Source: Escherichia phage ECML-4. From it: a stretch of DNA of 64,000 bases. The notes beneath the pieces were generated by a model. That model saw only the letters and a list, made by a program, of their open reading frames with translations. It was not told where the DNA came from and searched no databases. The stretch lies in sequence record JX128257; one strand, 5' to 3'. Every line of letters begins with the position of its first letter. Positions within the stretch are counted from its first letter, which is position 1. Below, piece after piece: positions 18,048 through 36,245 of the stretch. The position numbers were made by a program, and so were the translations under genes.

Positions 18048-18885
18048 TAATGGTCACAATGGGGTTAAGTATGAAACCCCGTTGTTTTACCAAAACGATT
18101 TTCCTCTGTTCATCGAGTTCATGGACACGTTCTTTAATTGGCTGTATCGGCAGCAGGGCTTCACTCAAGAAGAAATTTTGGCATATCTGGCAGACACTTC
18201 GAGTTGGATGAATCCTGAGAGTGAAGATTCACCTGTTAAACAACTCATAGATTTAAAGGCCGACAAAACGCCAGGTTCTGAAGCCAAAGATTATTTGTCA
18301 GATAAATTTTTGGTCAGAACATTTGAGAACATGATGGCTCTTGATGCCGAGATGCTGCTAGACGCTGATGGAAGGCCGTTGCTTTCTATTGAAGACAAGA
18401 ACAAGCAGATAGACGACTGGTATAATGATTTTGGGTTTCAACGAACTGTCGATAAATCATTTCAAGAATTTGGACATTTTATTCCAGTCGGTTCGGATTC
18501 TTTATTGACGGCCACGGGCGATACGTTCTCTGTTTATATTGAAGGAACTAAACGAAGAACTCTGGATCATCCGCGTTGGCTGAAATTGTTGAAACACATC
18601 TATAAAATACGTGGAACAAAGAAAGCGATTGAATTGTTCTTTTGGATATATTTCGGTTGTCCAGTCAGCGTCTATTTTACGAAAGAAGACATAGGCGGAC
18701 TGGACGGAAATTTTGAATGTGACGGCACGACAGGGATGCGTGATGATTACTATTATGATGAATACACTTATGTTATAGGAGTCCCAGGCGACGTATCTGA
18801 TTTTGAAGGTGTGTTTGAGCGCGTCTTCCGTCAGCATTTCCATCCTGCTGGATTTACTGTATTCCTAGAAAGCACAAGGAGCTAA
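18031..18885 (+). CDS. putative baseplate protein (285 aa)
   Basis: ATG 18031 overlapping the gp6-like 3-prime end; position between gp6-like gene and fibre genes; no motif recognised. Confidence 0.45.
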   Translation: MSKDLNNGHNGVKYETPLFYQNDFPLFIEFMDTFFNWLYRQQGFTQEEILAYLADTSSWMNPESEDSPVKQLIDLKADKTPGSEAKDYLSDKFLVRTFENMMALDAEMLLDADGRPLLSIEDKNKQIDDWYNDFGFQRTVDKSFQEFGHFIPVGSDSLLTATGDTFSVYIEGTKRRTLDHPRWLKLLKHIYKIRGTKKAIELFFWIYFGCPVSVYFTKEDIGGLDGNFECDGTTGMRDDYYYDEYTYVIGVPGDVSDFEGVFERVFRQHFHPAGFTVFLESTRS

Positions 18886-18887
18886 AA

Positions 18888-20078
18888 ATGGCCGATTTCC
18901 TGAGTCAATATACAGGTCAGCAGATAGATCAGATATTGGGTTCTGTTGATGACAAAGTAAGTAAAAATGACGTTATTAACGATTTTGAAGTTAACGACCC
19001 GTTGTTTCCACCATCTGCTCGCCTGACTTATGAGTTGAAAAGGTCTGTGGATACGATTAATGATACCCTGACCAACAAAGTTATAAGAACGGATAGTGGC
19101 GAACAGACAATCAACGGTAAGAAGACATTTAATGCGCTGTTGGTTACTAACGGGGGAATCCAAGTCCCCACTGGGAAATCTGTTTCAATCGCGGACGAAC
19201 CAACCAACTCAACAGACGGTGTCAACCTGAGTATGTTGAGGAAACATGGTGTCAGTGAAGACACCGCGCCAGATGGGTCTGGTTTGGCTGGGGAATTATT
19301 GACTTCCGGATATTACAAATTCAAACTGGATTTTAACAGATTGGCTGCGTATACGGAATTAACTCTCCCAACATCAGTTCCCGTGCAAACAGATTCTGGA
19401 GTTCGCACATGGTCAATGACTGCATTTTTTAATGCGTTATTTGCCGACGACCGTTTTAACGGTTATGTAACGACGACCACGTATGATGCCGACATGTTGA
19501 GTCTGGAGTCTCAGCTTAACAATATCAACACGACGTTGAACGGCAAAGTCAACACGTCAACTTACAACACAAAAATGGCTTCGTTGGATTTGAGTATATC
19601 CAACATTAACACATCTTTGAGCAACAAGGTTGAGGTCAGCACATATAATACGAAGATGACTTCCTTGGACGGCAGTATCAGTTCTCTCACGACTGGTAAG
19701 GTCGATGTATCAACGTATAATGCCAAAATGACCACAATTGATAACAGTTTGGGGAACGCTGTTTATCGCACCAAAACAAACTTGTCATCACTGACAGTAT
19801 CGGCTTCTGGAACAACAGCTCTGCCAGACTTTGATTTGGTGAAACTTTGCCAGATATTGGTAACAGCACAATGGGGTACAGGAGATGTCGTAGACACATA
19901 TCGTGTCACCATAACTCGAGACGGGACGATTAAGTCTGAGCTGCTGATCCAGAAAAGTACGAGCGGAACTGTGACGTTTACGGGTTCTGTAGTTGGTGGG
20001 AAACTGAGGATTTCTGTTGTCAATGCCAATACGACAACACCTTGCTCAGTCGATTATTCTATTACAGCATCTTTCTAA
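18888..20078 (+). CDS. fibre-like protein with tandem roughly 20-aa repeats
   Basis: Repeats such as VNTSTYNTKMASLDLSISN / VEVSTYNTKMTSLDGSISS / VDVSTYNAKMTTIDNSLGN; ATGGCC start 3 nt after the upstream stop. Confidence 0.55.
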   Translation: MADFLSQYTGQQIDQILGSVDDKVSKNDVINDFEVNDPLFPPSARLTYELKRSVDTINDTLTNKVIRTDSGEQTINGKKTFNALLVTNGGIQVPTGKSVSIADEPTNSTDGVNLSMLRKHGVSEDTAPDGSGLAGELLTSGYYKFKLDFNRLAAYTELTLPTSVPVQTDSGVRTWSMTAFFNALFADDRFNGYVTTTTYDADMLSLESQLNNINTTLNGKVNTSTYNTKMASLDLSISNINTSLSNKVEVSTYNTKMTSLDGSISSLTTGKVDVSTYNAKMTTIDNSLGNAVYRTKTNLSSLTVSASGTTALPDFDLVKLCQILVTAQWGTGDVVDTYRVTITRDGTIKSELLIQKSTSGTVTFTGSVVGGKLRISVVNANTTTPCSVDYSITASF

Positions 20079-20080
20079 AA

Positions 20081-20120
20081 CTAAATACCCCTAGATGACA
20101 TGAATACATTTAGGGGTATT
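20081..20120 (+). promoter_or_regulatory. late-promoter-like CTAAATA box embedded in 10-bp inverted repeat
   Basis: CTAAATACCCCTA ... TAGGGGTATT immediately upstream of ATG 20125. Confidence 0.5.
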
Positions 20121-20124
20121 ACAA

Positions 20125-23100
20125 ATGGCCAACAAACCAACACAGCCTCTTTTCCCTTTGGGTTTAGAAACTTCGGAGTCTTCGAACATAAAAGGCTTCA
20201 ACAACTCCGGCACCATAGAGCATTCCCCTGGTGCAATATTGACGTTCCCTGAAGATACTGATGTTGCGGGTCTCCCATCTTCTGTGCGTTACAATCCTGA
20301 TAGTGATGAATTCGAAGGTTATTACGAAAATGGCGGGTGGTTGTCTTTGGGCGGCGGTGGAATACGCTGGGAAACGCTCCCATACGCTCCCTCCAGCAAT
20401 CTGTTAGAAGGGCGCGGCTATCTCATTAATAACTCCACTGGGACTTCTACGGTGGTTCTTCCTTCCCCTACGCGCGTTGGTGACTCGGTTACAATTTGTG
20501 ATGCCTATGGTAAATTCGCGACGTATCCATTGACCGTATCTCCAGCGGGAAATAACCTGTACGGCTCCACCGAAGATATGACGATATCCACCGATAACGT
20601 GTCGGCGACTTTCACTTGGTCTGGTGCTGAGCAGGGTTGGGTTGTTACATCTGGTGTTGGCCTCGGTCAAGGTCGTGTGTACAGTCGAGAGATTTTCACT
20701 CAAATTTTAGCATCTGATACAAATGAAGTGACTCTCAACATCCCTCCGACAATTGTGGACGTGTACACTGATGGGAAACGCCTTACAGAATCCAAATATT
20801 CTTTAAATGGAAACGTAATCACTTTCGACCCTTCTTTACCTGCTGGCACTGAATTGCAGGTAATAGAATATACTCCGATTCAGTTAGGTACTGGCGGCGG
20901 GGGTTCGGGCGCTTCTGCAATCACCTGGATTTACAATGGCGGATCCGCTATCGGCGGCGAAACCGAAATAACGCTAGACATCGTTGTAGATGATGTTCCG
21001 GCTATTGATATAAACGGGTCTCGTCAGTACAAAAATCTTGGATTCACGTTCGACCCATTGACGAGTAAAATCACTCTGACGCAAGAACTGGAACCAGAAG
21101 ATGAAGTTGTTGTGGTTATAAATGGGACACCAAACATCTATAACCAGATCGATCGTTCTTTACAGGAAGTTGCTCGCGCCTACAATTTTACAAATGCTCA
21201 AGTTATTTTGAGCAACGATTATACTTCTGTGCTGGATAATAAAGTCGTTATTTATGATACGACATCCCAACGTTCTTGGGGGATTCCATCTGGAATTCCA
21301 GCAGGTTCTACAGTGGTTTCCGTCAATGGGGATCAACTGAAATACAAAAATGGATCAACTGAAACCACTGTTACATTGGTGAGCGTACCAGGTAGTGCAG
21401 AGAAGTTGAAGAACGATCTGGCGTCGAACTCTGGCGCGGGTATGTTGAAAACTTCTAGAGGTGATACCGTAGAAGAAGAATTGACTTTTATTAATCAGAA
21501 TATGGTCGTTCAAATTTCAGATTTCGCGAGCCTTAGAACTTTAGTGCCAGCCACAGCGGGCATCCGAGTCAAATTGAAAGGTTATTATTCTGGTTCTGAA
21601 ATTGGTGGCGGAGAATTCATTTCCGTCGCTGGTGATGCTGTTGATGATGCTGGGATGATTGCTCGAGTGTCAAGCAGCTTCTATTGGAAGAGAATTATCG
21701 ACAAACATATTACTCCTGGTATGTATGGCATCAAAGGGAATCTTCCAGAAGATCCGGCAGTGAAACTGAACGCTATGTTTGCGGCTGCGGCTGCGGCTAA
21801 CGCTTATGTCTTACTGAACGATGTCGATACTCTGGTCTGTAAAAGCCCTGTCGTGATCCCAGCACATTCATTAGTGTACGGCAACAAGCGGACCATATTG
21901 AAACGTGATGCATCGTTGTCATATGCTAATGATTTCTTGACAATTATGAATGATTCATATGTCAAGGGGATCTATGTTGATGGTAGCCGTTTAGATTCTC
22001 AGACTCCGCTAGAAGCAGTTTTGGTGCGCATCGCTGGGAATGTGACTATCCATAAGAGCGAGATCCGAAACAATGCTGGCTATGGCGTTGTTGGTAACGC
22101 AGTCCCTGGCATTCGTATCACCAAGAACATTTTTTCCAACTTCGCCAAAGGTTGTGTGGCTATGTTTGGTGACGGAACGGCGACGAGTGATGATCTGCAA
22201 ATTAATGATAACAGATTCTTTAACCTGGGCGCGGGAACCATTTATGTTGGCGGTTACTCAAACTTCCTTGTCGACAAAAACGTCGGAAGAGGCACTTACG
22301 TGGGTTCTCCAGGAAACCGTCTGTATGTTGTGACCAATACCAACGGGACTATCACCCAAAGCGCTGGGCCAGATTTTGGGGCGCTGAAAACGGGTATGTT
22401 CTTTGTATTGCCTGGTGGTTCTGAACATATGATAACGGCAGTCAACAGCCTTACAAGTGTGACAGTAACCCCAGCACCTCCGTCGAATGCAACGGTTCGT
22501 GCAATTGCTGGGACAGGGGATCTTCTGGGCATCCAATCATGCTCCTACGGCACCATCAGCCGTAACAACCTGACCGATTGTGTGACTTACGGAACTGGTG
22601 GAGGCACGATGGAGGGGAGCACTCTGGGGTGCAATTATGTCACATGGGAAGACAACTTCATCCGCAACACAGGTAAGAACGGAATCAACGTCGGGCAATC
22701 AGGCGCTGGGGTCGCCACGTGTTCAATCCTGAGGAACACTCTGATACAGGTTGGTAACGGCGGTCAGGGTGTTGGCCCAGCGTATCTTCTGCCTTGGTTC
22801 GATACGGTAGGTATTGCTCTGTATCAGGGAAACCCAGGTTATATGGCGAATATGGACGTCAGTGATAACAACGTCTCTACATGGTCTGGCGATCTGAATG
22901 ACGGCGCTGCTTGGTTTGGTATGAGCGGTTGTACGGAAGCCACTGTGACTTGTACAGGCAACAAATCTTCTGGTTATTCCGACGGCTATGTTCGTGGAGA
23001 TATATTAGAAGTCACGTTGACAGGTTATGGTACAGGGGCGGCTGCGACTTCATTCGTTAGTGATGGTGAGTCTATACAGATAACTGTTCAAACAGGTACT

Positions 23101-23298
23101 TCACCAACAGCTTCTCCTTATTTTTCAGTGCGGAAGGCGATCCGCACCCGCCATCAACCGATGATAACGGCGCAGATCGTCACCACAACTGGGAACATGT
23201 CTCATTGTTGGGGTATGCAATCTAGTACAGCAGGAAATTGGATGGTGGGTCAGAATACAACTCCTTCAGGGGTCACGACGTATTACGCAAAAGGGTAA
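20125..23298 (+). CDS. tailspike protein with large N-terminal assembly region and beta-helix-like domain (1057 aa)
   Basis: N-terminal block shared with the 926-aa tailspike (DRSLQEVARAYNFTNAQVILSNDYTSVLDNKVVIYDTTSQRSWGIP vs DRSIQEIARSANVKDSEVIVSTDTISLLDGKKVVYDIAAQTSYGLP); Gly/Asn-rich repetitive C-terminal region typical of beta-helix depolymerases. Confidence 0.7.
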   Translation: MANKPTQPLFPLGLETSESSNIKGFNNSGTIEHSPGAILTFPEDTDVAGLPSSVRYNPDSDEFEGYYENGGWLSLGGGGIRWETLPYAPSSNLLEGRGYLINNSTGTSTVVLPSPTRVGDSVTICDAYGKFATYPLTVSPAGNNLYGSTEDMTISTDNVSATFTWSGAEQGWVVTSGVGLGQGRVYSREIFTQILASDTNEVTLNIPPTIVDVYTDGKRLTESKYSLNGNVITFDPSLPAGTELQVIEYTPIQLGTGGGGSGASAITWIYNGGSAIGGETEITLDIVVDDVPAIDINGSRQYKNLGFTFDPLTSKITLTQELEPEDEVVVVINGTPNIYNQIDRSLQEVARAYNFTNAQVILSNDYTSVLDNKVVIYDTTSQRSWGIPSGIPAGSTVVSVNGDQLKYKNGSTETTVTLVSVPGSAEKLKNDLASNSGAGMLKTSRGDTVEEELTFINQNMVVQISDFASLRTLVPATAGIRVKLKGYYSGSEIGGGEFISVAGDAVDDAGMIARVSSSFYWKRIIDKHITPGMYGIKGNLPEDPAVKLNAMFAAAAAANAYVLLNDVDTLVCKSPVVIPAHSLVYGNKRTILKRDASLSYANDFLTIMNDSYVKGIYVDGSRLDSQTPLEAVLVRIAGNVTIHKSEIRNNAGYGVVGNAVPGIRITKNIFSNFAKGCVAMFGDGTATSDDLQINDNRFFNLGAGTIYVGGYSNFLVDKNVGRGTYVGSPGNRLYVVTNTNGTITQSAGPDFGALKTGMFFVLPGGSEHMITAVNSLTSVTVTPAPPSNATVRAIAGTGDLLGIQSCSYGTISRNNLTDCVTYGTGGGTMEGSTLGCNYVTWEDNFIRNTGKNGINVGQSGAGVATCSILRNTLIQVGNGGQGVGPAYLLPWFDTVGIALYQGNPGYMANMDVSDNNVSTWSGDLNDGAAWFGMSGCTEATVTCTGNKSSGYSDGYVRGDILEVTLTGYGTGAAATSFVSDGESIQITVQTGTSPTASPYFSVRKAIRTRHQPMITAQIVTTTGNMSHCWGMQSSTAGNWMVGQNTTPSGVTTYYAKG

Positions 23299-23306
23299 TA
23301 TTGAAT

Positions 23307-23345
23307 GCCTAAATACCCCATATTGGTCATCCTTTATGGGGTATT
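23307..23345 (+). promoter_or_regulatory. late-promoter-like CTAAATA box embedded in 11-bp perfect inverted repeat
   Basis: AATACCCCATA (23312-23322) and TATGGGGTATT (23335-23345), 3 nt before ATG 23349. Confidence 0.55.
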
Positions 23346-23348
23346 ATC

Positions 23349-25232
23349 ATGATTTCTCAATTCAATCAACCACGCGGCTCCACTTCCATAGAAGTTAACA
23401 AACAATCTATCGCTCGAAATTTCGGTGTCAAAGAAGACGAAGTCATTTATTTCACTGCTGGTATTGATCTCAGTGGATTTAAAGTAATTTATGATGAGTC
23501 TACCCAACGGGCTTATTCTCTCCCTTTCGGTATTGTTTCAGGGACAACTGCAATTAGTCTGGATGAAAGAGCTATCCTCACTCATTCCGCTGGCTCTGTT
23601 GACCTTGGGGAATTAGCAGTAAGCCGCGAAGAATATGTGACTTTACCTGGTTCTTTTAATTTCGGCCATACCATTAATGTGAAAAATGAACTTCTTGTTC
23701 ACGATGATAAAAAATATCGATGGGATGGCACATTACCTAAAGTTGTTCCTGTTGGATCAACTCCTACAACAACTGGGGGAATTGGGGTTGGTGCATGGTT
23801 GAGTGTTGGTGATGCATCGCTACGTGGTGAATTATTTTCAGAATACATCTTATACAAAACACCTCAGGCATTTGGTGCTATTGGTGATGGAGTTGCTGAT
23901 GACACTTTATCACTGCAAGATGCAATGGATTACTGTCAGGTTCACAACGAGAAACTTGTTATCCCATCAGGACGCTATCGAATCACCAAGCCACTGCTAT
24001 ATCGCAACCAGGGTTTTTATAACTATGAGATTGAAGGGCAGGGAGGTGCTGCTGTAATCATCATGGATTCTCTGGAAAAAACTGGAATTACTGCTCCTGA
24101 TGCCTTTGGCGATGATTTTAACGTTAACGCAGCGATGGTAGTTCTGAATGACACTAACCAGAGTAAGTATTGCCGCATTAGTGGATTGCGTTTCGAATCA
24201 CCAGTTGGTGCTGAATATGCTATTTATGTTGGTCAGGCAGAAAATACGTATATCCATGACTGCTTCTGGACTGGTTTCACCTTTGGGTGGTATGACCTTG
24301 GATCATGGGTTACACGCGTAGAACGCTGTATTGCCAGGGATATTGTAGATACTGGGTTCTTTAAGAAAAATGGCACCAGTACCTACATAGCTGAGTGTTA
24401 TGCAGACAGGATGATGCGAGGGTATTACCTCGGGGGTGGGTATTCGGCTATCATAAATTGTGCTTGCGATTTAACCACTCGCTGGGGGTTCTATCTATAT
24501 GGTGGTAGGACTGGTTCTGATTTAGCAACATTCTCTATTAAAGGTTGTGGTTCAGAGCAGTCTGGAACTGATTCTGTATTTTATGTTGACGGGCTAGTTG
24601 CGCTGTCTATAGAGGACCACAACGCAGGTAATGACCCAACTGTTCAACCAGCACCTGCTGCGTTGCTTAGCATGGCTTCGAATACATCATATTCACAAGT
24701 GGTGCTGAAAAATATTAGGACAGTAAATGTGGATACATTAATTTTGGATTCTGCTGACCATAATTATTTTGATTTAACAAATGTCACATGCCGCAGCGAG
24801 ATGTCGAAAGAATTTTATCTCGGTACGAATTCAAGAGTTTTAAAAAGGTCATATGATGGTGAAAGATTCATTACTAGCAACGACCAAGTTGGCATTGGCT
24901 TTGCGGAGTCTGATATTGTTGATGGATGGACAGATCTCACTTTGTCTGGACTAAGAAATGGACAATTTATAATTAGGAGGACTGTAAGCATACCCAGAAC
25001 TTCAGGGGATGCTGGGGCGGTAACTATCACGATGCCATTAAATATGGATACGAATTATACCGTAGCTGCCACTCTGGAGGGTGAATTTAGTCAACTGCAA
25101 TCCATTTGCCCTGTGTTCAGTGTTACAGATAAAACATCATCTAGTTTTTCTTTGTGTGCATCGTCTGCAAAGAATAATACAACATGGTCAGCTATAGATG
25201 TTGAGGTGATTATATATGGGCTGAAATCGTAA
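23349..25232 (+). CDS. tailspike protein (627 aa)
   Basis: N-terminal about 150 aa shared with the 744-aa tailspike (MISQFNQPRGSTSIEVNKQSIARNFG vs MNPQFAQPKGSTSKESNKDSIARKFG; YRWDGTLPKVVP vs YRWNGSLPKVVP). Confidence 0.7.
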   Translation: MISQFNQPRGSTSIEVNKQSIARNFGVKEDEVIYFTAGIDLSGFKVIYDESTQRAYSLPFGIVSGTTAISLDERAILTHSAGSVDLGELAVSREEYVTLPGSFNFGHTINVKNELLVHDDKKYRWDGTLPKVVPVGSTPTTTGGIGVGAWLSVGDASLRGELFSEYILYKTPQAFGAIGDGVADDTLSLQDAMDYCQVHNEKLVIPSGRYRITKPLLYRNQGFYNYEIEGQGGAAVIIMDSLEKTGITAPDAFGDDFNVNAAMVVLNDTNQSKYCRISGLRFESPVGAEYAIYVGQAENTYIHDCFWTGFTFGWYDLGSWVTRVERCIARDIVDTGFFKKNGTSTYIAECYADRMMRGYYLGGGYSAIINCACDLTTRWGFYLYGGRTGSDLATFSIKGCGSEQSGTDSVFYVDGLVALSIEDHNAGNDPTVQPAPAALLSMASNTSYSQVVLKNIRTVNVDTLILDSADHNYFDLTNVTCRSEMSKEFYLGTNSRVLKRSYDGERFITSNDQVGIGFAESDIVDGWTDLTLSGLRNGQFIIRRTVSIPRTSGDAGAVTITMPLNMDTNYTVAATLEGEFSQLQSICPVFSVTDKTSSSFSLCASSAKNNTTWSAIDVEVIIYGLKS

Positions 25233-25270
25233 TTATTGTATTAAATAAATAACTTATCTTTTATTAAAAA

Positions 25271-25297
25271 ACCCCGCTTCGGTGGGGTTAGTTTTTA
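25271..25297 (+). terminator. rho-independent terminator
   Basis: ACCCCGC-TTCG-GTGGGGT followed by TAGTTTTT, downstream of the 627-aa tailspike gene. Confidence 0.6.
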
Positions 25298-25399
25298 GAA
25301 GTTGTTGATGGTAATCGGCGATGATTGCTCATTTTGTTTTGGGTAATTCTTCGATCTTCAGTCGTTAAACGCCATCATTGCTGCTTCCCATCCCAGCGC

Positions 25400-25414
25400 C
25401 ACACACACACACAC
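25400..25414. repeat. (CA)7 dinucleotide microsatellite in intergenic region
   Basis: CACACACACACACAC read directly at 25400-25414. Confidence 0.9.
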
Positions 25415-25531
25415 TATGCATCCGGCATTTAAAGATGCGGAAAGGTAATCAATCTGGCCTTCCTCCCAATCGCTAATTGTGTGGTCTTTCCTCTTGCTTC
25501 TGGTGTTTCTTTGTCCGGCGCTGGGAATTAT

Positions 25532-25831
25532 ATGGTAATTTCGGGAAACACGTTGATGGCTAATAACCCATCTGCGCCTGAAAATATAACTTTGTATCAG
25601 GTCACAGGTGCGCAGAGTTGGGTGGCCCATTATGAAACTATCAGATGTGTTCGAAATGATTTCAAATCTGCGCTGTTGGCGATTAATGCAACAGGGACAG
25701 CACAATCTGGTTTGAGTACTACCAATAAATTCTGGTTCGGGGATAACGCGACGATCAATACCACGGTTGTTTGTACTTATCCTGCTGGCAACAAAGCCAA
25801 CACCGATATCACTCAGACAGTTTCAGTTTAA
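25532..25831 (+). CDS. small Ser/Thr/Asn-rich protein (start uncertain)
   Basis: Track ORF 25481..25831 begins at GTG; first in-frame ATG at 25532. Composition resembles fibre-type domains. Confidence 0.3.
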   Translation: MVISGNTLMANNPSAPENITLYQVTGAQSWVAHYETIRCVRNDFKSALLAINATGTAQSGLSTTNKFWFGDNATINTTVVCTYPAGNKANTDITQTVSV

Positions 25832-25842
25832 ATTGAATTGAG

Positions 25843-25881
25843 CCTAAATACCCCATATTGGCAAATCCTTTATGGGGTATT
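25843..25881 (+). promoter_or_regulatory. late-promoter-like CTAAATA box embedded in 11-bp perfect inverted repeat
   Basis: AATACCCCATA (25847-25857) and TATGGGGTATT (25871-25881); same arms as the element at 23312-23345. Confidence 0.55.
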
Positions 25882-25886
25882 TTCAA

Positions 25887-28652
25887 ATGACCAGAAATGT
25901 AGAAGAATTATTCGGCGGCGTAGTCACAGCTCCCCACCAGATTCCTTTCACTTATAAATCAAGTGTCGGTGGAGAAACTTTCTTTTCTCTACCTTTCTAT
26001 CCTGTCACTGGTGTTGTCACAATCAACGGTGGTATGCAAGTTCCGTTAGAGAACTTCGAGATAGACGGGAATACGTTGAATCTCGGGCGCGCATTGTCCA
26101 AAGGCGATGTTGTGTATTGCTTATTCGATAAAATTCTTTCACCAGAAGACACTGCCAAAGGCATCCGCATATACAAATTTCAAGCCGTGGGTGGAGAAAC
26201 CGAATTCACGCCTGACTTTACTTCTTATGGTGTACAGTCTCTTTATATCGGTGGCGAATACAAAACTCCTGATATAGAATATTCATACAACAGTACGACT
26301 GGGAAAGTGTCTTTGCAAACTGCATTGACTGCAGGCGTTTGGGTAGTCGCTGAAATCTCTGTTAAACAACCGAATATCAGTCCGGCGTTTGACCGCAGTA
26401 TTCAAGAAATTGCCCGTTCTGCTAATGTGAAAGACTCTGAAGTCATCGTTAGTACGGACACCATATCTTTGTTGGATGGGAAGAAAGTTGTTTATGACAT
26501 AGCGGCACAAACCAGTTATGGTTTACCAACCATTCCTGATGGTTCTGTCATTTCTACGATCTCAGACGGGAAATTGAATTACAACCCAGGTGATGTGCAG
26601 GTTGATTTGTTGCCTTTAGAAGATTCATTTATTAATGTGATAAACACTCTGGGGCGCAATGATGGTGCCAAGTATATCGGAGAATGCCATTCTGTTGCTG
26701 ATCTCAGGAATACTGAACCCACTATGGATGGACAACGCATTATTCTTAAGCAACACACTGCGGGTACTCTTCTTGGTGGAGGGGTATTCCGTGCGTTAAT
26801 TGATGGTACAGGAAAGACTGATGATAACGGTACTGTGATCAAAACTGTTGGCGGCGCAGCCTGGTTACGTGTTAATGCTGATAGAGTTAACCCATTCATG
26901 TTTGGTGCTTTGGGTGGTTCTAATGATGATACTATTCCAGTACAATCTTGTGTGGACAGTGGTAAGGCCACACAATTAACTGGTATACATTACGTTAGCA
27001 ATATCCAGTTAAAATATAATACGTCGTCTATTTATGGGTCTGGATTACATTACTCCAGGTTGCATCAGTTGCCTTCTGCTACTGGGAATTGTATTACCAT
27101 AAAAGATACATGCTCCCTTATTGTATTAGACTCCTTTGGGGTATATGGCACAGGTGCACAACAAGGCACATCATTTACTGCGGGTACAACAGGTATCTAT
27201 ATAGAAACTCCTTCAGGTCTCTCAGCCGATTATCCGTTCCACACTACCGCAGACCCAAGACGCGACTTGTGTATTTCTAAGGTCCATATAGCAGGTTTTG
27301 ATGAATATGGGTTAAATATTGATAGTGGTAACTTTAGTGTTACTACAGATTCTCTTTTAGTCAACCACATCAATCAGGTGGGCGTCCGTTGTGCTACTAC
27401 TGATTGGACTTGGACAAATATCCAGGTTAATACCTGCGGTAAACAATGTCTGGTTCTTGATGGTTGTGGTAATGGTCGTATTATTGGTGGTAAATTCATT
27501 TGGGCTAACTGGCAACCTTATGGTACAGTAGGACAGTTCCCAGGCATTACTATTAATAATAGCCAGAATATGGTTATTAATGGTATTGAGGTACAAGATT
27601 GTGGCGGGAATGGCATTGAGATTAGCGATTCATATTCAATTTCCATGAACGGATTGAACACCAATCGTAACGGCATCAACGCTAACAACACTTTCTACAA
27701 CATCGTATTTAACAAAAGTGATGCAGTTATCAACGGATTCGTAGGACTCAATTATGCCGCGAATAGTGGTTCAGGTGCTAACTCTAGTGCGGGCAATTTT
27801 CAGTTCCTGTCTAATGATTGCAGCGTCACCATTAATGGTGTGGTTGAGACTGGTTATATGGGCATTAACTTTATTGGTGATAACAATATTATCAACCCCA
27901 CAAATTCCGACCTGAGCATTAACGGATTGGTTAATTATTCCAAGACTGGTTTGCAAACCATGAACGAGACCCCTACATTTGATGGTGTTAGCACTACACC
28001 TGTTTATGTAAGTGTCCCATCTTCTGTAGGGCAAGTAAATGGTCTGAGACTATCACAAGCCAACAAAGATAAATTACTGTACTCAAGAACAGCAGGTCCA
28101 GAAGGTATTACCATGGCTGCTGTTGTAGTACCTACCATATCTGGAGCTGAAGTATTTAACTTCATGGCCATTGGTTCAGGGTTTAGTGATACATCCAACA
28201 GTCTTCATCTTCAATTAGTTATAGACGCTTCCGGAAAACAAACAATTGCTTTGCTATTGGGGGGCGATGGTACAACCCAAATTTTATCTGGGGATTTACC
28301 TAACGACCTTAAACTACAAAGTGGTGTGCCATATCATATAGCTATTGGTGCTAAACCTGGATATTTCTGGTGGAGTATTCTTAATATTCAGACGGGTAAG
28401 AGAATCAGACGGTCATTCCGAGGCGCTTATTTAGCTGTACCATTTAATTCTATATTCGGATTAACTTCTTCATTAACATTCTTCTCGGATAGCAATGCTG
28501 GTGGGGATGCCTGTTCTGGTGTAGGTGCTAAAGTGTATGTTGGTATGTTCTCTTCTGAGAATGATTATGTAGCTTCACGGTACTACAACCTGATTAATCC
28601 TGTAGACCCTAATAAGTTAATTAGTTACCGTATATTGGATTCTTCTATTTAA
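25887..28652 (+). CDS. tailspike protein with beta-helix-like domain (922 aa)
   Basis: Start set at ATG 25887 (MTRNVEEL), downstream of the hairpin; track ORF begins at 25872 inside the hairpin. Shares N-terminal module with the 1057-aa tailspike. Confidence 0.7.
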   Translation: MTRNVEELFGGVVTAPHQIPFTYKSSVGGETFFSLPFYPVTGVVTINGGMQVPLENFEIDGNTLNLGRALSKGDVVYCLFDKILSPEDTAKGIRIYKFQAVGGETEFTPDFTSYGVQSLYIGGEYKTPDIEYSYNSTTGKVSLQTALTAGVWVVAEISVKQPNISPAFDRSIQEIARSANVKDSEVIVSTDTISLLDGKKVVYDIAAQTSYGLPTIPDGSVISTISDGKLNYNPGDVQVDLLPLEDSFINVINTLGRNDGAKYIGECHSVADLRNTEPTMDGQRIILKQHTAGTLLGGGVFRALIDGTGKTDDNGTVIKTVGGAAWLRVNADRVNPFMFGALGGSNDDTIPVQSCVDSGKATQLTGIHYVSNIQLKYNTSSIYGSGLHYSRLHQLPSATGNCITIKDTCSLIVLDSFGVYGTGAQQGTSFTAGTTGIYIETPSGLSADYPFHTTADPRRDLCISKVHIAGFDEYGLNIDSGNFSVTTDSLLVNHINQVGVRCATTDWTWTNIQVNTCGKQCLVLDGCGNGRIIGGKFIWANWQPYGTVGQFPGITINNSQNMVINGIEVQDCGGNGIEISDSYSISMNGLNTNRNGINANNTFYNIVFNKSDAVINGFVGLNYAANSGSGANSSAGNFQFLSNDCSVTINGVVETGYMGINFIGDNNIINPTNSDLSINGLVNYSKTGLQTMNETPTFDGVSTTPVYVSVPSSVGQVNGLRLSQANKDKLLYSRTAGPEGITMAAVVVPTISGAEVFNFMAIGSGFSDTSNSLHLQLVIDASGKQTIALLLGGDGTTQILSGDLPNDLKLQSGVPYHIAIGAKPGYFWWSILNIQTGKRIRRSFRGAYLAVPFNSIFGLTSSLTFFSDSNAGGDACSGVGAKVYVGMFSSENDYVASRYYNLINPVDPNKLISYRILDSSI

Positions 28653-28706
28653 AAATATACCCCTCTTCGGAGGGTATTTACTAGAGAAAAACAGGAGATT
28701 CTTATT

Positions 28707-30941
28707 ATGAATCCGCAATTTGCTCAACCAAAAGGTTCTACTTCAAAAGAATCGAACAAAGACAGTATTGCTCGTAAATTTGGGTGTAAAAAGTCGGAAG
28801 TCGTTTATGCGAAATCAGGACAGTCCTTGTCTGGATATAAGGTTATTTATGACAAGGAAACACAGAGAGCGTATTCCTTGCCTGTAGATATTCCAGCAGG
28901 AACCACGGCTATTAGCCTTAGCGCCAGTGCTCTGCTTGTACACTCTGGGGGTTCTGTAGACCTGGGCGAACTAGCTTCCCAACGCAATGAATATAATGTA
29001 TTACCTGGTTCTTTTACTACTGGTGCAATAGTATCCACAAAGAATGATGTACTTACCCACAATGGTATCCAGTATCGTTGGAATGGTTCATTACCTAAAG
29101 TTGTACCTCAGAACTCTTTACCATCCAGTGATGATAATTGGATTGGCTTGGGTGCTTCTTATCTGAAGGAACAGCTTAACAGTACCAGTGGTGCATCCAT
29201 GGTAGTACTGGCTAATGGCAAAACCATTGAAGAAGAATTTGCCGAAGAAGCTGCATGGCAGAACCAAGAGAATATGGTGAGAACCGTTATTCCTAATGTT
29301 TATCACCATATCCGTGGCGTTCAGCGTCACTCTGGTAAAAACTTAGCATGGTCTGCTCCAGACGTTGCTATTGATAAACTTAACCCTACGGATACCGTCT
29401 TCTACCGTATGCCCCAGATTGTTAAAACTGGTGATGGTACTCTGATGATTTTCTGTAATGAGTTGCATGGTAACAATACAGATATTGGTGCTACTCCAGA
29501 TCAGCAATGTAATATCGTTATGAAATACTCCATTGATAATGGGTGGTCTTGGTCGGCTAAGGTAGTGGTAGCTAACTTTGGGGCTACGTATCAGAACGGT
29601 GAGATTGCTGCTGTGTATAACCCAGTAGATGGTCGGGTATACTGTTACTTTACTTCCTGCAAAGGCCAGTTGGGTTGGGGATACTCACAGCCAGGCAATG
29701 ACCCTAATACATCATCCCAGATATATGTTACCTACTGTGATGCGGAAGCTCCTACTATATGGCGTACACCAGCTAACATTACTGCTACCCTTAAGCCAGC
29801 AACGGCAGATTTTATCTGGACTTCACCAACTAAACCAGTTGTTTTACCGGATGGTAAGATGGCAATGATTGTGTCTACCGTCACTGGTTCACGGGTTGAT
29901 TCTTTCCTTACCATCATGAAGTATGACATTAAGTACAGCATGGACTACGTACTTAGTTCCGAAGAATCTGGTGGGGAAGTCGGACTGAACCTTTTGCCGG
30001 ATGGTCGTATGGTGATGAACTCTCGTGCTTACCACACCACAGACCTTAAAGGGCTTCAGAAATTCTATATCAGTGATCATCAGTTTAAGAACTGGCAGCA
30101 CTTATCTGATTTAGTTACATCGGATAGTAAGGGTGACCTGGTTCCTATTTTTGATGGGGTTAATGGTGTTCTTACTTGGGCGTTTACTTGTGCTAATGGT
30201 GTAGGTGATAATTCTATTGGTCGTACTAACTACCGAGTATGGATTAGTCGTGACCTAGTTACTTGGGGGTTAGCTCCTACTGGGGATATCAACACAAGTG
30301 ATTCTGTTGGGTACATCGCATCAATGCCTGGTGGTGATGATGGTTATGTAATCTCTACATCTGAATCAGGTGGTTTTGGTGGTATTTGGTTTACTCAATG
30401 GAATGCTAAGTATATCCAGAACAGAAACTACAACCGCTATCACAAAGAGTTGCGAGAATTAGAGTCAGTAGATGAAACAGCAATGCTCGCATCCGGCGCT
30501 ATTCCTAACTACTCTTTTTACGTAAACAAAGACTCCAACCTAATTAACTTCAACCGCAACGGTACTCCAGTTAAGATTCAGCAATTGGGGGTTAGTCAGA
30601 ATGCTGTTGATAAGTACACTACAACTCAGACCCTAGCATCTATTCCTGTAGATGGTGTTGATATTGTATTAGTCACTGGTTCCGGTATTACTCTTACCCT
30701 TAGTGGGTTTAGCGGTGGATATATGGGCCAGCGTGTGACAGTTATCTCTGATTCATCTGGTGGTGGGGTAGTGCTTAAACGTGCTGATACAACATTGCCT
30801 ACTGTAACGGACAGATTCCACTTTAATGTGGCAGGAGCCTTTACTGCTTTGAGGGTAGACTATGCAACTAAGATGATGGTTACTTTAGTTAAGACTCCAT
30901 CTGGTTGGTTCACGGAAAGTATTGCTAACGTAACAATCTAA
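28707..30941 (+). CDS. tailspike protein with sialidase-like (BNR/Asp-box) domain (744 aa)
   Basis: Shared N-terminal module with the 627-aa tailspike; YRMP motif resembling the sialidase (F/Y)RIP motif, followed by Asp-box SIDNGWSW (SxDxGxTW pattern). Confidence 0.65.
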   Translation: MNPQFAQPKGSTSKESNKDSIARKFGCKKSEVVYAKSGQSLSGYKVIYDKETQRAYSLPVDIPAGTTAISLSASALLVHSGGSVDLGELASQRNEYNVLPGSFTTGAIVSTKNDVLTHNGIQYRWNGSLPKVVPQNSLPSSDDNWIGLGASYLKEQLNSTSGASMVVLANGKTIEEEFAEEAAWQNQENMVRTVIPNVYHHIRGVQRHSGKNLAWSAPDVAIDKLNPTDTVFYRMPQIVKTGDGTLMIFCNELHGNNTDIGATPDQQCNIVMKYSIDNGWSWSAKVVVANFGATYQNGEIAAVYNPVDGRVYCYFTSCKGQLGWGYSQPGNDPNTSSQIYVTYCDAEAPTIWRTPANITATLKPATADFIWTSPTKPVVLPDGKMAMIVSTVTGSRVDSFLTIMKYDIKYSMDYVLSSEESGGEVGLNLLPDGRMVMNSRAYHTTDLKGLQKFYISDHQFKNWQHLSDLVTSDSKGDLVPIFDGVNGVLTWAFTCANGVGDNSIGRTNYRVWISRDLVTWGLAPTGDINTSDSVGYIASMPGGDDGYVISTSESGGFGGIWFTQWNAKYIQNRNYNRYHKELRELESVDETAMLASGAIPNYSFYVNKDSNLINFNRNGTPVKIQQLGVSQNAVDKYTTTQTLASIPVDGVDIVLVTGSGITLTLSGFSGGYMGQRVTVISDSSGGGVVLKRADTTLPTVTDRFHFNVAGAFTALRVDYATKMMVTLVKTPSGWFTESIANVTI

Positions 30942-30947
30942 AATACA

Positions 30948-30974
30948 AGCCCCCAATAAGGGGGCTTTCTTTTG
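30948..30974 (+). terminator. rho-independent terminator
   Basis: AGCCCCC-AATAA-GGGGGCT followed by TTCTTTTG. Confidence 0.65.
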
Positions 30975-31105
30975 CTATGTCTCGTTAACCTGACAGGAAC
31001 TGGAAGTTCAAAACTATCAGGTGGAGGAACTGGGTTTTTATTTCTATCTGTTTGTTGGCTGTATACTAAATATCTCTATAAAATGGCACTAGATGGAGCA
31101 TCAAA

Positions 31106-34100
31106 ATGCAATCTACAAATTTAAACCGTCGCCCGTATTGGGATGACTGGAATCCTGGGAAACGTTTTTCACGGATTCTTTTTCGTCCGATGCCTATCAA
31201 GGTTCAGACTCGCGAACTGAACCAGATGCAGACTATTCTTCAGGATCAAATTGAAAAACTGGGCAACCATCTGTTCAAAGATGGTTCTATGGTTATCCCT
31301 GGCGGTCTGACGATCACCAATGCCGCAGTCTCTTTGAAATTCACTTTGGCGGGTGGTACTGAATTCACCGATCTGGAAGGTATTTCTGAACTCTACGTTT
31401 TGGGGAAAGACAATAACGCCAAAGCGCGTGTGTTGTCTCTTGAACGTGATCTGTCTGCTCCTGATACGATGTTGGCCATCCTTGAGATGACTGAAGCGGG
31501 TAATGCTGACGGATTCCATGTTAACGATAATCTGTATTTCCAGACTTACGACGTGAATGATAATTTCATTCGTATTGGTTATGGGATCGCGGCTGCTGTA
31601 ACTGGTTCTATCGTTGCTCGTATGACGAAAGGCGTTTACTTCATTCGTGGGATGTTCCTTGATGTTGATGACGCGACTCTCATCGTCGATAAAACTTCAA
31701 ACACTTCTTCCCATCGCGTCGGGTTTAAAGTCACCGAAACCATCGTGACTGAATCTGAAGACGAATCCCTTTATTCAAACGCTCAGGGAACGATTAACTC
31801 CAAAGCCCCAGGCGCTCATCGTCTTCGAATAGATCTGGTCTTATCTCGATTTGATTATGATGCTGTGGTTGAAGACTTTGTTGAACTGGCCAAAGTTCGT
31901 GATGGTAAAATCCAGTCTATGGTGACTCAGTCCACCTATAATATTCTGGAAGACACGTTGGCTCAACGGACGTATGAAACCAACGGCGATTACAACGTTT
32001 CAACGCATCAGATCGACATCCGCGAACACCTGAAAGTCAATAACAATGGTGGAGTATTCAATGCTGCTGATGGCGGCGACGAAAGTAAATTCGTGTCTGT
32101 AATGAAACCAGGTATTTCCTATGTTCGCGGTCGTCGTATCGAAAACGTCGGGGAAGAGTTGGTGATCGTTGACAAGGCACGGGATACCGATGTCCTGAAT
32201 AACACGCCTGTCGCAGTTGCTACAGGGAATTATCTGGTCACCAAGAACTCCAAAGGTGTTCCAGTAATATCTCGCACTGTGCGATACAAGTTATTGAACG
32301 CATCCGGCGCTACTCAAGCCACGGCGTTGTGTATATCCGCTGAACGCAATTCAACTGAATTCCGCCTGTACATGCGTGATTTAGTTGTGACTGGGGACGC
32401 GTCCACTATCACCAAAGTGTCTTATGAAGAAAGTGGGATCACCATGTTTTCTGCTGAACTGGAATCCAACCAGTTTAACCAGAGTTCTATGGTAGACCTG
32501 ATCTTCTCTCTTCCGGTCTTCGGTGTTAAAACATTAGCGCCAACAGGTTCCGTGGATATCAACTACACAGTCCTCAGAACTTATAAGGTGACGCTAGACA
32601 GCAGCGGTTCTGGTTCTATTTCAGCCCCGCTGGGATATAGTTTTTCCCCAGAATTTTCGTTGTACTCTGCAGCGAAATCAGATGGTTCGGAAGCGCAGTT
32701 CGATATCTCTGGCTCTTTGTCTTTGACTGGTTCTCCGGTCGGTTCGGCGCTGCAGATTTCTCTGGGTAGTGGTAATGCTAACCAGTCAATCAATTTGCTG
32801 GCGCTGATGATTCGTACCACGGCCACAATCAAAACGAAGACCATCACTGAAACAACTGAAACAGTGACGTTCACATCACAGACCAGCCGTCCTTTGGCGA
32901 ATCACGATGGTTGGAAATTGGTATCGGTCAAAAACGATACTGGCGCAGACGTGACCTCTAGCTTCGTTCTAGATGGTGGACAGCGTGATGCAGGGTATTA
33001 CAAGTCTAACTTGTTATCCAGCGCTGGAGCAATCTCAGGGACGTATACAGTGGTGTATCAATACTTCGCCCACAGTTCCGGTGATTTCTTCTCTGCTGAT
33101 TCGTATACTTCGATGGATTATAAAGATATCCCGAATTATACATCTTCTACATCAGGCGCGGTGTACGGCCTGGCAGATAGTTTAGATTTCCGTCCGAAAA
33201 TCACCAACGGAACTTCTGACACAGATATGGTTCGTCCAAACACTGCAGTTATTCTGGACACAGAATATTATCTGCCGCGTATCGACGCGATTTATCTGGC
33301 AGACAACGGTGTGTTTGGTGTGGCTCGAGGCATCAGTTCTAATAATCTGGCTTCTCCAGCAATCCCAGCGAACGCCATGCGTTTGTATGAATTGTTGATC
33401 CCGCCGTATACACCGAATATTGATGATATCCAAATTCGAACTATTGATAATCGTCGTTATACAATGCGCGATATCGGTAAACTGGAAACCCGTATTTCCA
33501 ATGTTGAATACTATACCTCTCTGTCACAGCTGGAATCTTCAGCGATGACACAGCAAGTGTTTGACCCCATCACGGGTAATCCTCGTTTCAAAAATGGTAT
33601 TGCAGCTGATCCGTTCAAAGACTTCCGGTTGATTGATGACTTGTCTGAAGATTGGATGGGTTCTATCGATACCGAAAACGGACGTCTACGCCCGTTTGTA
33701 CAACAGAACGTTGTTGACATGACTCCGGTTGGCTGGAACAAAGTGATGGATGGGATGGTGGTTTGTAATTACACACCTGAAATCTCAGTGAACCAAGAAT
33801 ATGCGACGACGACGATCAACGTTAACCCGTATGCAGTATTCAATTGGGAAGGTTTCTTGAAGATTAACCCGACCACAGACTACTGGTTCGAAAACTATTA
33901 TGTTGCCCCGCGTATTATTAATGAAACGATCAACACCCGTGGTACTGTACAAGAAGGTTCAGTGTACGGAACATGGCGGACTGTTTCTGTTTCTGATCGT
34001 GTTTGGGAGCCGCATGGTGCTGGTGGTGTGTGGTGGGGATATCGTTACCGCACGACTGTTTCTGCCCGTGATGTCACCACATATACATACACGGACAAAA

Positions 34101-35944
34101 CAACCACGACCATGACTGGTGAACAGATTGTGGAGACGCAAGTTATCCCATACATGCGCGAGATCGATATTTCTTTCGACGCATCTGGACTGCGACCTTT
34201 CACTCGTATGTATGCGTTCTTCTCTGGTCGTGACGTCAATCTGTATTGCAAACCGAATGGTGGTAATTTCGGTGACCCAATCACCACTGATGCCAATGGT
34301 GCTGTTAAAGGTGTATTCCGCGTTCCACAGAACGATACAATCAAGTTCAACACAGGCGACAACGTGTTCCGCTTAACGGATAGCCCTGTTGACAGTAAAT
34401 CTGCGGATGATACACTGACCAATGCAGAAATTGTTCATAAATCTTTCGGTAAGAAACAAGGTATTCAAAAGACCTTTGTCAACACTCGTGTCCTGGGTTA
34501 CACTGCCAGTACTCGCACCGAAACCAGCACTTCTGAAGTTGTGGTCGACCAATGGCGTGATCCGATTGCCCAATCGTTTATGGTAGCGACTAAGAATGGC
34601 GGCGAGTATATCGAAGGCGTGGAAGTATTCTTCTCTACCAAGTCACGTGATGTTCCGATCACTCTGGAAATTCGCGAGATGGAGAATGGCTTACCTTCTC
34701 ATACAGTCATTACTCGTAAAACTTTGAACCCGTCTGAAGTGACGATCTCTACAGACTCTTCCGGCGGTACGAAGTTCACCTTTGATTATCCGGTGTATCT
34801 GCAAGCATCGACTGAGTTTGCTATCGTTTTGTTGGCGAATACCCAGGATTACAACGCGTATATCGCGGAAATGGGCAAGAAAAACCTTCTGTCCAACGAA
34901 TATATCGCCAAACAACCGTATACAGGGGTGTTCTTCACTTCTTCAAACGGTTCTACATGGTCTCCAAACCAAATGGCTGATATGAAATTCCGCATATATC
35001 GTTGTAACTTCGCTGCGGGACAGAACGTTGTAACATTTGATTCGAAGCTCGGGCCAAAACAACGTCCGTTGGGATTGAATACTCTGAACTGCGTGAGTGG
35101 GTCTTCTGTTGTGACTGTGTTTGCACCTGGTCATGGTTTGGTTGCTGGGAACAATGTTACTCTTTCTGAATTGACAGGTGGTTGTGGCTTTACTCCTGAA
35201 CAACTTAACAAAACGTTTACTGTGACAGATGCGAGCTATACTTCATTCAAGATTGATGTTGGCGCAGCAGCAGACAGCAACGGTCAGATTGGTGGCGACA
35301 ACGCATCTTTCTTGGGAAATTATCTGGTTGATATGTTCTATGCCAGCGTTACCAATTCGGCTCTGGAAGGTTCAATATTGAAACTGGAATATCGTTACCG
35401 CGATGCCACTTCAAACTCCATGTCGGATTGGGCTGAATTTGAAACTGATACTGATGTTGCTCTGCCGACTGAAGGTATCTATCGCCAGGTTGGTGACTTC
35501 CAGATTCGTGCTACTATGACTCGTAGTGAAAACAACGTGTACACAGCACCGATGATTGATGGTGATGACCTAAGTGTAATCTTCAACTCTTATGGCGTAG
35601 ATCCTTTTGAAGACGTTTTCAAATATGTCACAAAGGACATTGGTTTCGATAACCCATGTTCGACTGTGAAACTGTTCTTCGGGGCGATGCTGCCTTCTCA
35701 ATCCTCCATGAAGGTGCAGGTAAAACTGCTCCGAGCAGGGCAAGAGATGGATAGCGTGGATTGGGAAGACGTTACTCCAACTTCGCCTCTGGTTAACGAC
35801 GGTTCTACATTCTTTGAATATGAGTATGATAAGACTGTGGCAAGCAACAATCCGTTCGTTGGACTGAAAGTCAGAGCACTTGTAAGGGGGAACCGAGTTG
35901 CTCCTCCTTCATTCAAAGACTTCCGTCTTATTGCTCTGGCATAA
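31106..35944 (+). CDS. giant virion structural protein (1612 aa), function unknown
   Basis: Single uninterrupted ORF within the late structural block, preceded by a CTAAATATC late-promoter-like box at about 31063. Confidence 0.6.
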   Translation: MQSTNLNRRPYWDDWNPGKRFSRILFRPMPIKVQTRELNQMQTILQDQIEKLGNHLFKDGSMVIPGGLTITNAAVSLKFTLAGGTEFTDLEGISELYVLGKDNNAKARVLSLERDLSAPDTMLAILEMTEAGNADGFHVNDNLYFQTYDVNDNFIRIGYGIAAAVTGSIVARMTKGVYFIRGMFLDVDDATLIVDKTSNTSSHRVGFKVTETIVTESEDESLYSNAQGTINSKAPGAHRLRIDLVLSRFDYDAVVEDFVELAKVRDGKIQSMVTQSTYNILEDTLAQRTYETNGDYNVSTHQIDIREHLKVNNNGGVFNAADGGDESKFVSVMKPGISYVRGRRIENVGEELVIVDKARDTDVLNNTPVAVATGNYLVTKNSKGVPVISRTVRYKLLNASGATQATALCISAERNSTEFRLYMRDLVVTGDASTITKVSYEESGITMFSAELESNQFNQSSMVDLIFSLPVFGVKTLAPTGSVDINYTVLRTYKVTLDSSGSGSISAPLGYSFSPEFSLYSAAKSDGSEAQFDISGSLSLTGSPVGSALQISLGSGNANQSINLLALMIRTTATIKTKTITETTETVTFTSQTSRPLANHDGWKLVSVKNDTGADVTSSFVLDGGQRDAGYYKSNLLSSAGAISGTYTVVYQYFAHSSGDFFSADSYTSMDYKDIPNYTSSTSGAVYGLADSLDFRPKITNGTSDTDMVRPNTAVILDTEYYLPRIDAIYLADNGVFGVARGISSNNLASPAIPANAMRLYELLIPPYTPNIDDIQIRTIDNRRYTMRDIGKLETRISNVEYYTSLSQLESSAMTQQVFDPITGNPRFKNGIAADPFKDFRLIDDLSEDWMGSIDTENGRLRPFVQQNVVDMTPVGWNKVMDGMVVCNYTPEISVNQEYATTTINVNPYAVFNWEGFLKINPTTDYWFENYYVAPRIINETINTRGTVQEGSVYGTWRTVSVSDRVWEPHGAGGVWWGYRYRTTVSARDVTTYTYTDKTTTTMTGEQIVETQVIPYMREIDISFDASGLRPFTRMYAFFSGRDVNLYCKPNGGNFGDPITTDANGAVKGVFRVPQNDTIKFNTGDNVFRLTDSPVDSKSADDTLTNAEIVHKSFGKKQGIQKTFVNTRVLGYTASTRTETSTSEVVVDQWRDPIAQSFMVATKNGGEYIEGVEVFFSTKSRDVPITLEIREMENGLPSHTVITRKTLNPSEVTISTDSSGGTKFTFDYPVYLQASTEFAIVLLANTQDYNAYIAEMGKKNLLSNEYIAKQPYTGVFFTSSNGSTWSPNQMADMKFRIYRCNFAAGQNVVTFDSKLGPKQRPLGLNTLNCVSGSSVVTVFAPGHGLVAGNNVTLSELTGGCGFTPEQLNKTFTVTDASYTSFKIDVGAAADSNGQIGGDNASFLGNYLVDMFYASVTNSALEGSILKLEYRYRDATSNSMSDWAEFETDTDVALPTEGIYRQVGDFQIRATMTRSENNVYTAPMIDGDDLSVIFNSYGVDPFEDVFKYVTKDIGFDNPCSTVKLFFGAMLPSQSSMKVQVKLLRAGQEMDSVDWEDVTPTSPLVNDGSTFFEYEYDKTVASNNPFVGLKVRALVRGNRVAPPSFKDFRLIALA

Positions 35945-35996
35945 ATAATGTTGAAAGGTGGGCGTAAAGCCCACCAAACCAATAGAGGATAAAAAT

Positions 35997-36245
35997 ATGC
36001 GTGGAATGAAAGTACAGGGGCACGCATCCATGTTGAGAAGCAGTTCTTGCCCTGGCGCGATTATTTGCACCGATCACGCCGCTGGTATGGCTGCATTGCA
36101 AGCCCGTCAACGCAATGAAACCCGTGAAGCCACCATTGTTGAACAATCAAACCAGATATCTAATCTGGAGGCAACAATCAAAATGATGGCCGAAAAGTTG
36201 GGGATTGAAATCCCCGAAGGAGGTCAGAATGGCGACGCAAGCTGA
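35997..36245 (+). CDS. small hypothetical protein
   Basis: ORF 35958..36245 in track; start at ATG 35997 preferred on spacing. Low support. Confidence 0.3.
   Translation: MRGMKVQGHASMLRSSSCPGAIICTDHAAGMAALQARQRNETREATIVEQSNQISNLEATIKMMAEKLGIEIPEGGQNGDAS

Follow-up and report, generated by a model that had tools for sequence, protein, structure and literature searches.

A tailspike protein of Escherichia phage ECML-4 with a predicted sialidase-type beta-propeller

The gene for tailspike protein 1 (TSP1) of Escherichia phage ECML-4 encodes a protein whose predicted receptor-binding domain is a six-bladed beta-propeller of the GH33 sialidase type. It lies in the window analyzed here, a stretch of 64,000 nucleotides of sequence record JX128257 that comes from a Kuttervirus (Ackermannviridae), a phage of Salmonella and E. 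coli O157. According to a recent review all the tailspikes of the Ackermannviridae carry beta-helix catalytic domains (PMC11721090); on the predicted fold TSP1 is an unremarked exception to that statement. We think it likely that TSP1 is a virion-borne enzyme of sialidase fold that binds a sialic-acid-type sugar in the O antigen and cuts its ketosidic bond.

The predicted propeller and its active site

The original prediction, made from the letters of the DNA alone, suggested that a 744-aa protein was a propeller glycosidase downstream of its shared N-terminal module, pointing to a YRMP sequence that resembles the RIP motif of sialidases and to an Asp box, SIDNGWSW. The open reading frame (ORF) is present exactly as described, and both motifs are found where they were placed (Table 1). 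A chance occurrence of the pair is ruled out; when the protein was shuffled 5000 times with its composition preserved, 5 of the shuffled sequences contained a strict Asp box (S.D.G.[TS]W) and 96 the motif [FY]R[IMLV]P, while in TSP1 they stand in the correct order, 40 residues apart.

The predicted structure is in good agreement with the proposed fold. A first AlphaFold model, of the whole protein and based on 12 sequences, had a predicted local distance difference test score (pLDDT) of 68 and a disordered N-terminus, and when this model was searched with Foldseek, GH33 sialidases alone were returned at a probability of 1.0. A second run on residues 171–744 using a 28-sequence alignment raised the pLDDT to 88.2, with a predicted template modelling score of 0.79. 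In the model residues 205–570 are all-beta, comprising six repeats of a four-strand unit, so that the predicted catalytic domain is a six-bladed propeller as in GH33 and a beta-helix is refuted. TSP1 alone finds the sialidase of Porphyromonas gingivalis in the PDB (phmmer, E = 1.5e-9), and a profile built from 28 relatives finds 4fj6, the GH33 structure from P. distasonis, with an alignment across the whole propeller (E = 8e-35). The GH33 matches outscore other propeller families by far, yet the homology is plain only through the PDB search, the family profile and the predicted structure. The bacterial GH33 exo-sialidases of known structure (P. gingivalis PG_0352, 8gn6 and 8feb; Hadza Hz136, 6mnj; P. 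distasonis, 4fj6; M. viridifaciens, 1eut) are only 16–20% identical to TSP1. Unlike them, TSP1 is joined to a phage attachment module and to a novel C-terminal beta-sandwich, and would probably attack a bacterial polysaccharide at residues inside the chain.

The attachment module is that of the Ackermannviridae tailspikes. Residues 1–150 match the heads of CBA120 TSP1, TSP3 and TSP4 with E values from 1e-39 to 1e-48 (4.7e-47 for TSP1, 4oj5, and 1.3e-48 for TSP3, 5w6f; phmmer against the PDB), as well as the 777-aa Gp48 (E = 8e-54), and Pfam Tail_spike_N is found at residues 91–141. Within the window the module is indeed shared, residues 1–164 having 55% identity (E = 8e-52) with the N-terminal part of the 627-aa tailspike encoded at 23349–25232. 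These tandem domains dock TSP1 onto the XD3 domain of TSP4 in a branched tailspike complex (PMC11721090). CBA120 TSP1 and the other solved Ackermannviridae tailspikes share homologous tandem domains and a position in the tsp cluster with the TSP1 of the window, but have a beta-helix where the latter has a six-bladed propeller. The linker between attachment domains and propeller is probably a neck in the modelled structure. A second beta domain spans residues about 600–744, with conserved columns at R703, T730, G733, W734, A740 and N741. No PDB entry matches it in sequence, and it may function in carbohydrate binding or in the assembly of a putative trimer.

All the principal catalytic elements of a GH33 sialidase can be assigned within the propeller. 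The arginine triad, whose absence had been named as the test that would overturn the prediction, is present as R234, R440 and R506, in alignment with the triads of 4fj6, 6mrv, 7qy9 and 8gn6; the sialidase-like interpretation thus stands. The predicted tyrosine nucleophile (Y536), its glutamate partner (E424) and the acid/base aspartate (D259) are likewise in place. Conservation was counted over 28 family members with identities down to about 20%. D259, E424, R440 and Y536 are invariant (28/28), R506 is kept in 27 and R234 in 19, and the position of E553 is glutamate or aspartate in 23. The YRMP sequence is a variant of the (F/Y)RIP motif that accompanies repeated Asp boxes (S-x-D-x-G-x-T-W) in GH33; one box is canonical, and at three further positions, which align with Asp boxes in the P. 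gingivalis enzyme, the sequence is degenerate (CDAEAPTIW, SDHQFKNW and SRDLVTW).

One standard element of the GH33 site is missing. The position six residues before the catalytic aspartate is arginine in 4fj6, 6mrv, 7qy9 and 8gn6, and Leu253 in TSP1; it is leucine or lysine in the family, within a family-specific motif NELHGN..D. We take this arginine to be the residue that in the S. typhimurium enzyme binds sialic acid at its O4 hydroxyl. With Leu253 in its place, the pocket may be suited to a sugar that carries a substituent, or is otherwise different, at C4.

A distant branch of the family (P0017, P0018, P0022, P0023, P0026 and P0028–P0031) has tyrosine or phenylalanine in place of the first triad arginine, reading YYAP and not YRxP, together with lysine at the Leu253 position. 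It keeps the aspartate, the glutamate, the tyrosine and the other two arginines. The difference could be due to a shift in the alignment, or to altered substrate binding.

Distribution of the module and its prophage relatives

How widespread is the propeller? The family is small: a search of 1.8 billion representatives yields 30 clusters at E ≤ 1e-10. Within it the propeller and the C-terminal domain move as a module between different anchors, of which 10 are Tail_spike_N, three the N-terminus of the T7 tail fibre, three tail-collar and one the P22 head-binding domain. It occurs in Kuttervirus TSP1, a 1053-aa tail fibre of Aglimvirinae, a tail protein of Gamaleyavirus, a T7-like phage, and prophages of podovirus type in Enterobacter hormaechei and Salmonella. 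Searched by tblastn, deposited phages contain the domain only in 14 Kutterviruses, where the protein is identical or nearly identical, and in five distant phages. The DNA of the receptor-binding domain gave no blastn match in 5,426 complete E. coli genomes, and a scan of the GTDB representative genomes gave none either.

Among the Kutterviruses the gene is 100% identical at the nucleotide level in 12 deposited records, FEC14, vB_EcoM_3HA11, Sajous1, Guerrero, FrontPhageNews and FSL SP-029/063 among them, and 99.3–99.7% identical in two more. The protein is 100% identical to the cluster that carries the ECML-4 name. In ECML-4, FEC14 and Sajous1 it occupies the same slot between TSP2 and vriC, and there is no difference in sequence from the TSP1 of the window. 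The surrounding 19 kb (17000–36000 of the window) are only 94–96% identical to those of phages sharing the 100% identical gene, and this disparity suggests that the module has spread horizontally among Kutterviruses in recent times.

Neither the protein nor its labelling as a sialidase is new, since both appear in public records and in one paper. Three GenBank records (Sajous1, FrontPhageNews and Guerrero) label the identical protein ‘putative exo-alpha-sialidase’, and NCBI names the prophage relatives ‘sialidase family protein’, ‘exo-alpha-sialidase’ or ‘tail fiber/spike domain-containing protein’. The Sajous1 protein, identical to TSP1, was detected in purified virions by mass spectrometry with 113 spectra, and the subtype appears as TSP1-20 in Table 10 of the same paper (PMC10892097). 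A literature search found no biochemical study or enzyme assay of the protein, and DepoCatalog held no relevant precedent.

The tailspikes of the E. hormaechei and Salmonella diarizonae prophages have the same propeller and C-terminal domain as TSP1, at 45–48% identity, on other N-terminal anchors of podovirus type. They are always followed by an Acyl_transf_3 gene, whereas the lytic Kuttervirus has none. This membrane acyltransferase lies immediately 3′ of the homologue in five independent prophage contexts (L002, 12475–13503; L003, 11433–12461; L005, 12445–13476; L008, 12150–13169; L012, 1746–2774), with the lysis cassette next. It is 339–343 aa in length and 64% identical between Enterobacter and Salmonella, and NCBIfam offers no specific name for it. 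The layout is typical of tailspikes directed at O antigens that are paired with a serotype-converting acetylase, and the gene is probably one of lysogenic conversion, modifying the receptor by O-acetylation and travelling with the tailspike. In S. diarizonae LHICA D1 (CP078142.1) the homologue is a remnant truncated by an insertion sequence (IS), 48% identical to TSP1, next to an intact acyltransferase.

Proposed mode of action and candidate receptor

The domain structure suggests how TSP1 might function. The N-terminal tandem domains would hold it on the branched complex of four tailspikes at the baseplate, and the propeller, taking the place of the usual beta-helix depolymerase, would bind the polysaccharide of the host surface. 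The chemistry inferred from the alignment is that of a standard retaining GH33 enzyme. R234, R440 and R506 would clamp a sialic-acid-type (2-keto-3-deoxy nonulosonic) sugar by its carboxylate, Y536 activated by E424 would attack C2 to form a glycosyl-enzyme intermediate, and D259 acting as acid/base would protonate the leaving group. TSP1 would probably cut a heteropolysaccharide endo-wise, and such cutting would let the phage work its way down the polymer until the baseplate reaches the outer membrane.

Could the fold serve another substrate? Either a different sugar of the O antigen or capsule, such as 3-deoxy-D-manno-octulosonic acid (Kdo) or a neutral sugar, might be cut by an enzyme of this fold, and both the missing arginine at the O4 position and the failure of TSP1 to match Pfam models would fit such a substrate. 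Yet all seven GH33-specific residues for 2-keto-3-deoxy acids are kept, four of them invariant, an intact triad of carboxylate-binding arginines would be hard to explain if the sugar were neutral, and the GH33 matches lie far above those of other propellers. Kdo is itself an ulosonic acid, so that this sub-case comes close to the sialic-acid enzyme in any event. We therefore regard a substrate outside the nonulosonic acids as unlikely. A propeller that only binds, as a lectin-like adhesin derived from a sialidase, is somewhat less probable still. The tyrosine, its glutamate, the acid/base aspartate and the triad arginine R440 are invariant, and R506 is nearly so (27/28), in relatives down to about 20% identity, a pattern expected of purifying selection on catalysis; moreover the characterized Ackermannviridae tailspikes degrade their receptors (PMC11721090).

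The GH58 endosialidases (K1F, K1E and phi92 gp143; 4hiz) provide the nearest analogy in mode of action, since they too are virion tailspikes that apply a sialidase-type propeller to a polymer of sialic acid. If TSP1 were of this kind it would degrade the polysialic acid capsules of E. coli K1 or K92. Membership of GH58, as judged by similarity to K1F or phi92, an inserted barrel, a stalk and a C-terminal chaperone, was rejected for TSP1, and we consider such an activity very improbable.

We return to the preferred reading, a sialidase acting on the O antigen, and ask which sugar might be the target. The LHICA D1 strain that bears the truncated homologue is of serotype 48:i:z (genome announcement PMC8515881), and among the Salmonella O groups only O48 has sialic acid in its O antigen; its N-acetylneuraminic acid (Neu5Ac) is internal and substituted at C-4 (PMC9631793). 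The presence of Leu253 in TSP1, where the solved sialidases have arginine, would agree with a substituent at this position. This strain makes an O antigen of Neu5Ac type a candidate, and a Neu5Ac-containing O antigen is our best guess for the receptor. Internal Neu5Ac substituted at C-4 or C-7 is found in the O antigens of E. coli O24, O56 and O104, Citrobacter braakii O37 and Hafnia alvei 2 (PMC9631793), and NnaABC is encoded in some O-antigen clusters of Enterobacter cloacae (PMC7198725). Because enterobacterial O antigens carry such sugars within the chain, cleavage of the heteropolymer by TSP1 would be of endo type. Salmonella O48 is the most specific candidate for the target, and a tentative one, the case being circumstantial and drawn from one genome and a 48%-identical relative. 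With similar reserve we put forward the possibility that TSP1 is an endo-acting O-antigen depolymerase of family GH33 cutting internal 4-substituted, possibly O-acetylated, Neu5Ac, as in Salmonella O48.

A number of observations weigh against a sialidase directed at such an O antigen. In a Pfam scan of TSP1 Tail_spike_N is the sole match, with no BNR or sialidase model at E ≤ 0.1, and the NCBIfam neuraminidase model gives 38 bits where its cut-off is 900; thus neither curated model of the family (Pfam BNR_2 or NCBIfam neuraminidase) is matched above its cut-off by TSP1 itself, while BNR_2 is matched by 21 of the 28 relatives. Only one of the Asp boxes is canonical. The link to O48 comes from a single genome, in which the homologue is only 48% identical and IS-truncated. 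Prophage tailspikes need not fit the present serotype of their host, and most of the other prophage homologues are in E. hormaechei. The phages and receptor-binding proteins reported to be specific for O104, or for O145, whose O antigen contains Neu5Ac, bear no resemblance to the TSP1 domain at the level of tblastn. We found no enzyme assays or host-range results that assign a receptor to the subtype. The host-range tables of phages carrying it include no host that needs TSP1, being explained by TSP2 (O157) and TSP3 (O4/O9), and Sorensen et al. 2021 do not list the subtype in their receptor table.

The tailspike cluster

The genes of the window run in the order baseplate genes, TSP4, TSP3, TSP2, TSP1 and the DUF4815/VriC gene. 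This layout matches the cluster of FEC14, and for that reason the gene at 28707–30941 was assigned as TSP1; it is the last of the tsp cluster and adjoins vriC, the usual position of TSP1 in the Ackermannviridae. The features of the gene and its surroundings are collected in Table 1.

Table 1. Features of the TSP1 gene and the tailspike cluster, in window coordinates
Feature	Position	Strand	Basis or remark
TSP4, 1057 aa	20125..23298	+	N-terminal 339 aa match CBA120 TSP4 N-terminus 7rej, E 1e-205
TSP3, 627 aa	23349..25232	+	CBA120 TSP3-type head and pectate-lyase-like Pfam domain
TSP2, 926 aa	25872..28652	+	Near-identical to O157-specific CBA120 TSP2, 2046 bits over residues 6-926
AGGAG ribosome-binding site	28693..28697	+	9 nt before TSP1 ATG; read from sequence
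TSP1 gene	28707..30941	+	ATG start, 744 aa plus stop; ORF list
N-terminal tandem attachment domains TD1/TD2, aa 1-150	28707..29156	+	phmmer against PDB; Pfam Tail_spike_N
Linker aa 151-204, predicted helix aa 174-192	29157..29318	+	AlphaFold secondary structure, low confidence
GH33-type six-bladed beta-propeller, predicted catalytic receptor-binding domain, aa 205-570	29319..30416	+	
YRMP, aa 233-236	29403..29414	+	(F/Y)RIP variant; R234 is first triad Arg; aligned to FRIP/YRIP of solved sialidases
D259, predicted acid/base catalyst	29481..29483	+	Aligned to Asp mutated in P. gingivalis D219A structure 8t26
SIDNGWSW, aa 275-282, canonical Asp box	29529..29552	+	Aligned to STDGGKSW
E424, predicted Glu partner of nucleophilic Tyr	29976..29978	+	Alignment
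R440, second triad Arg	30024..30026	+	Alignment; E424/R440 (GGEVG...NSR) match E...R pair
R506, third triad Arg	30222..30224	+	Aligned to KGR of 4fj6, 6mrv, 7qy9
Y536 (VGYIAS), predicted catalytic nucleophile	30312..30314	+	Aligned to GYS of solved sialidases
E553, predicted Glu stabilizing first Arg	30363..30365	+	Aligned to YE of solved sialidases
Short helix and C-terminal beta-sandwich, aa 571-744	30417..30938	+	Model pLDDT about 90; kept in family
Terminator-like hairpin, strong	30947..30967	+	8 bp, 6 GC, T-run; just past TSP1 stop codon
VriC-like protein (DUF4815)	31106..35944	+	Bounds tsp cluster

The neighbouring tailspikes are of CBA120 type. TSP4 and TSP3 resemble the CBA120 proteins in their N-terminal attachment parts only (residues 1–339 and 1–164), and their receptor-binding parts are unlike any solved structure at the level of sequence; the tailspike set of this phage is thus a new combination. 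The TSP2 ORF begins five codons upstream of residue 1 of the crystallized CBA120 TSP2 (residues 6–926 align to 1–921), and its true start may be the second methionine (MTRNV...). A 640-nt spacer separates TSP3 from TSP2 (25233–25871, with an ORF at 25481–25831). Positions 25489–25871 share 99% identity with the 3′ end of the Vi01 ‘tail spike 3’ gene, and 25267–25495 give a 91% match to other phage records. The spacer has the look of a scar of module swapping, in which the C-terminus of an earlier TSP3 receptor-binding module was left behind when that module was replaced. The stop codons of TSP2 and TSP1 are directly trailed by GC-rich hairpins with T-runs (28661–28674 and 30947–30967). A stretch of 2.9 kb contains ten terminator-like sites, where 2.0 would be expected, and each tailspike gene is thus bracketed by a stem-loop.

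Kutterviruses serve in the biocontrol and detection of Salmonella and of Shiga toxin-producing E. coli, and their host range is read from the four tailspikes. The TSP1 subtype described here is present in at least 14 sequenced phages. If it has the activity proposed, sialylated O serogroups would join the predictable host range of the Kutterviruses, with the candidate Salmonella O48 common in subspecies arizonae and diarizonae, and the protein would be a ready-made enzyme with which to cut or type O antigens that contain sialic acid. Should its action be of endo type, this would be a new GH33 specificity, distinct both from the exo-sialidases and from the GH58 endosialidases of polysialic acid, and TSP1 would possibly be the first GH33-type endo-acting O-antigen depolymerase.

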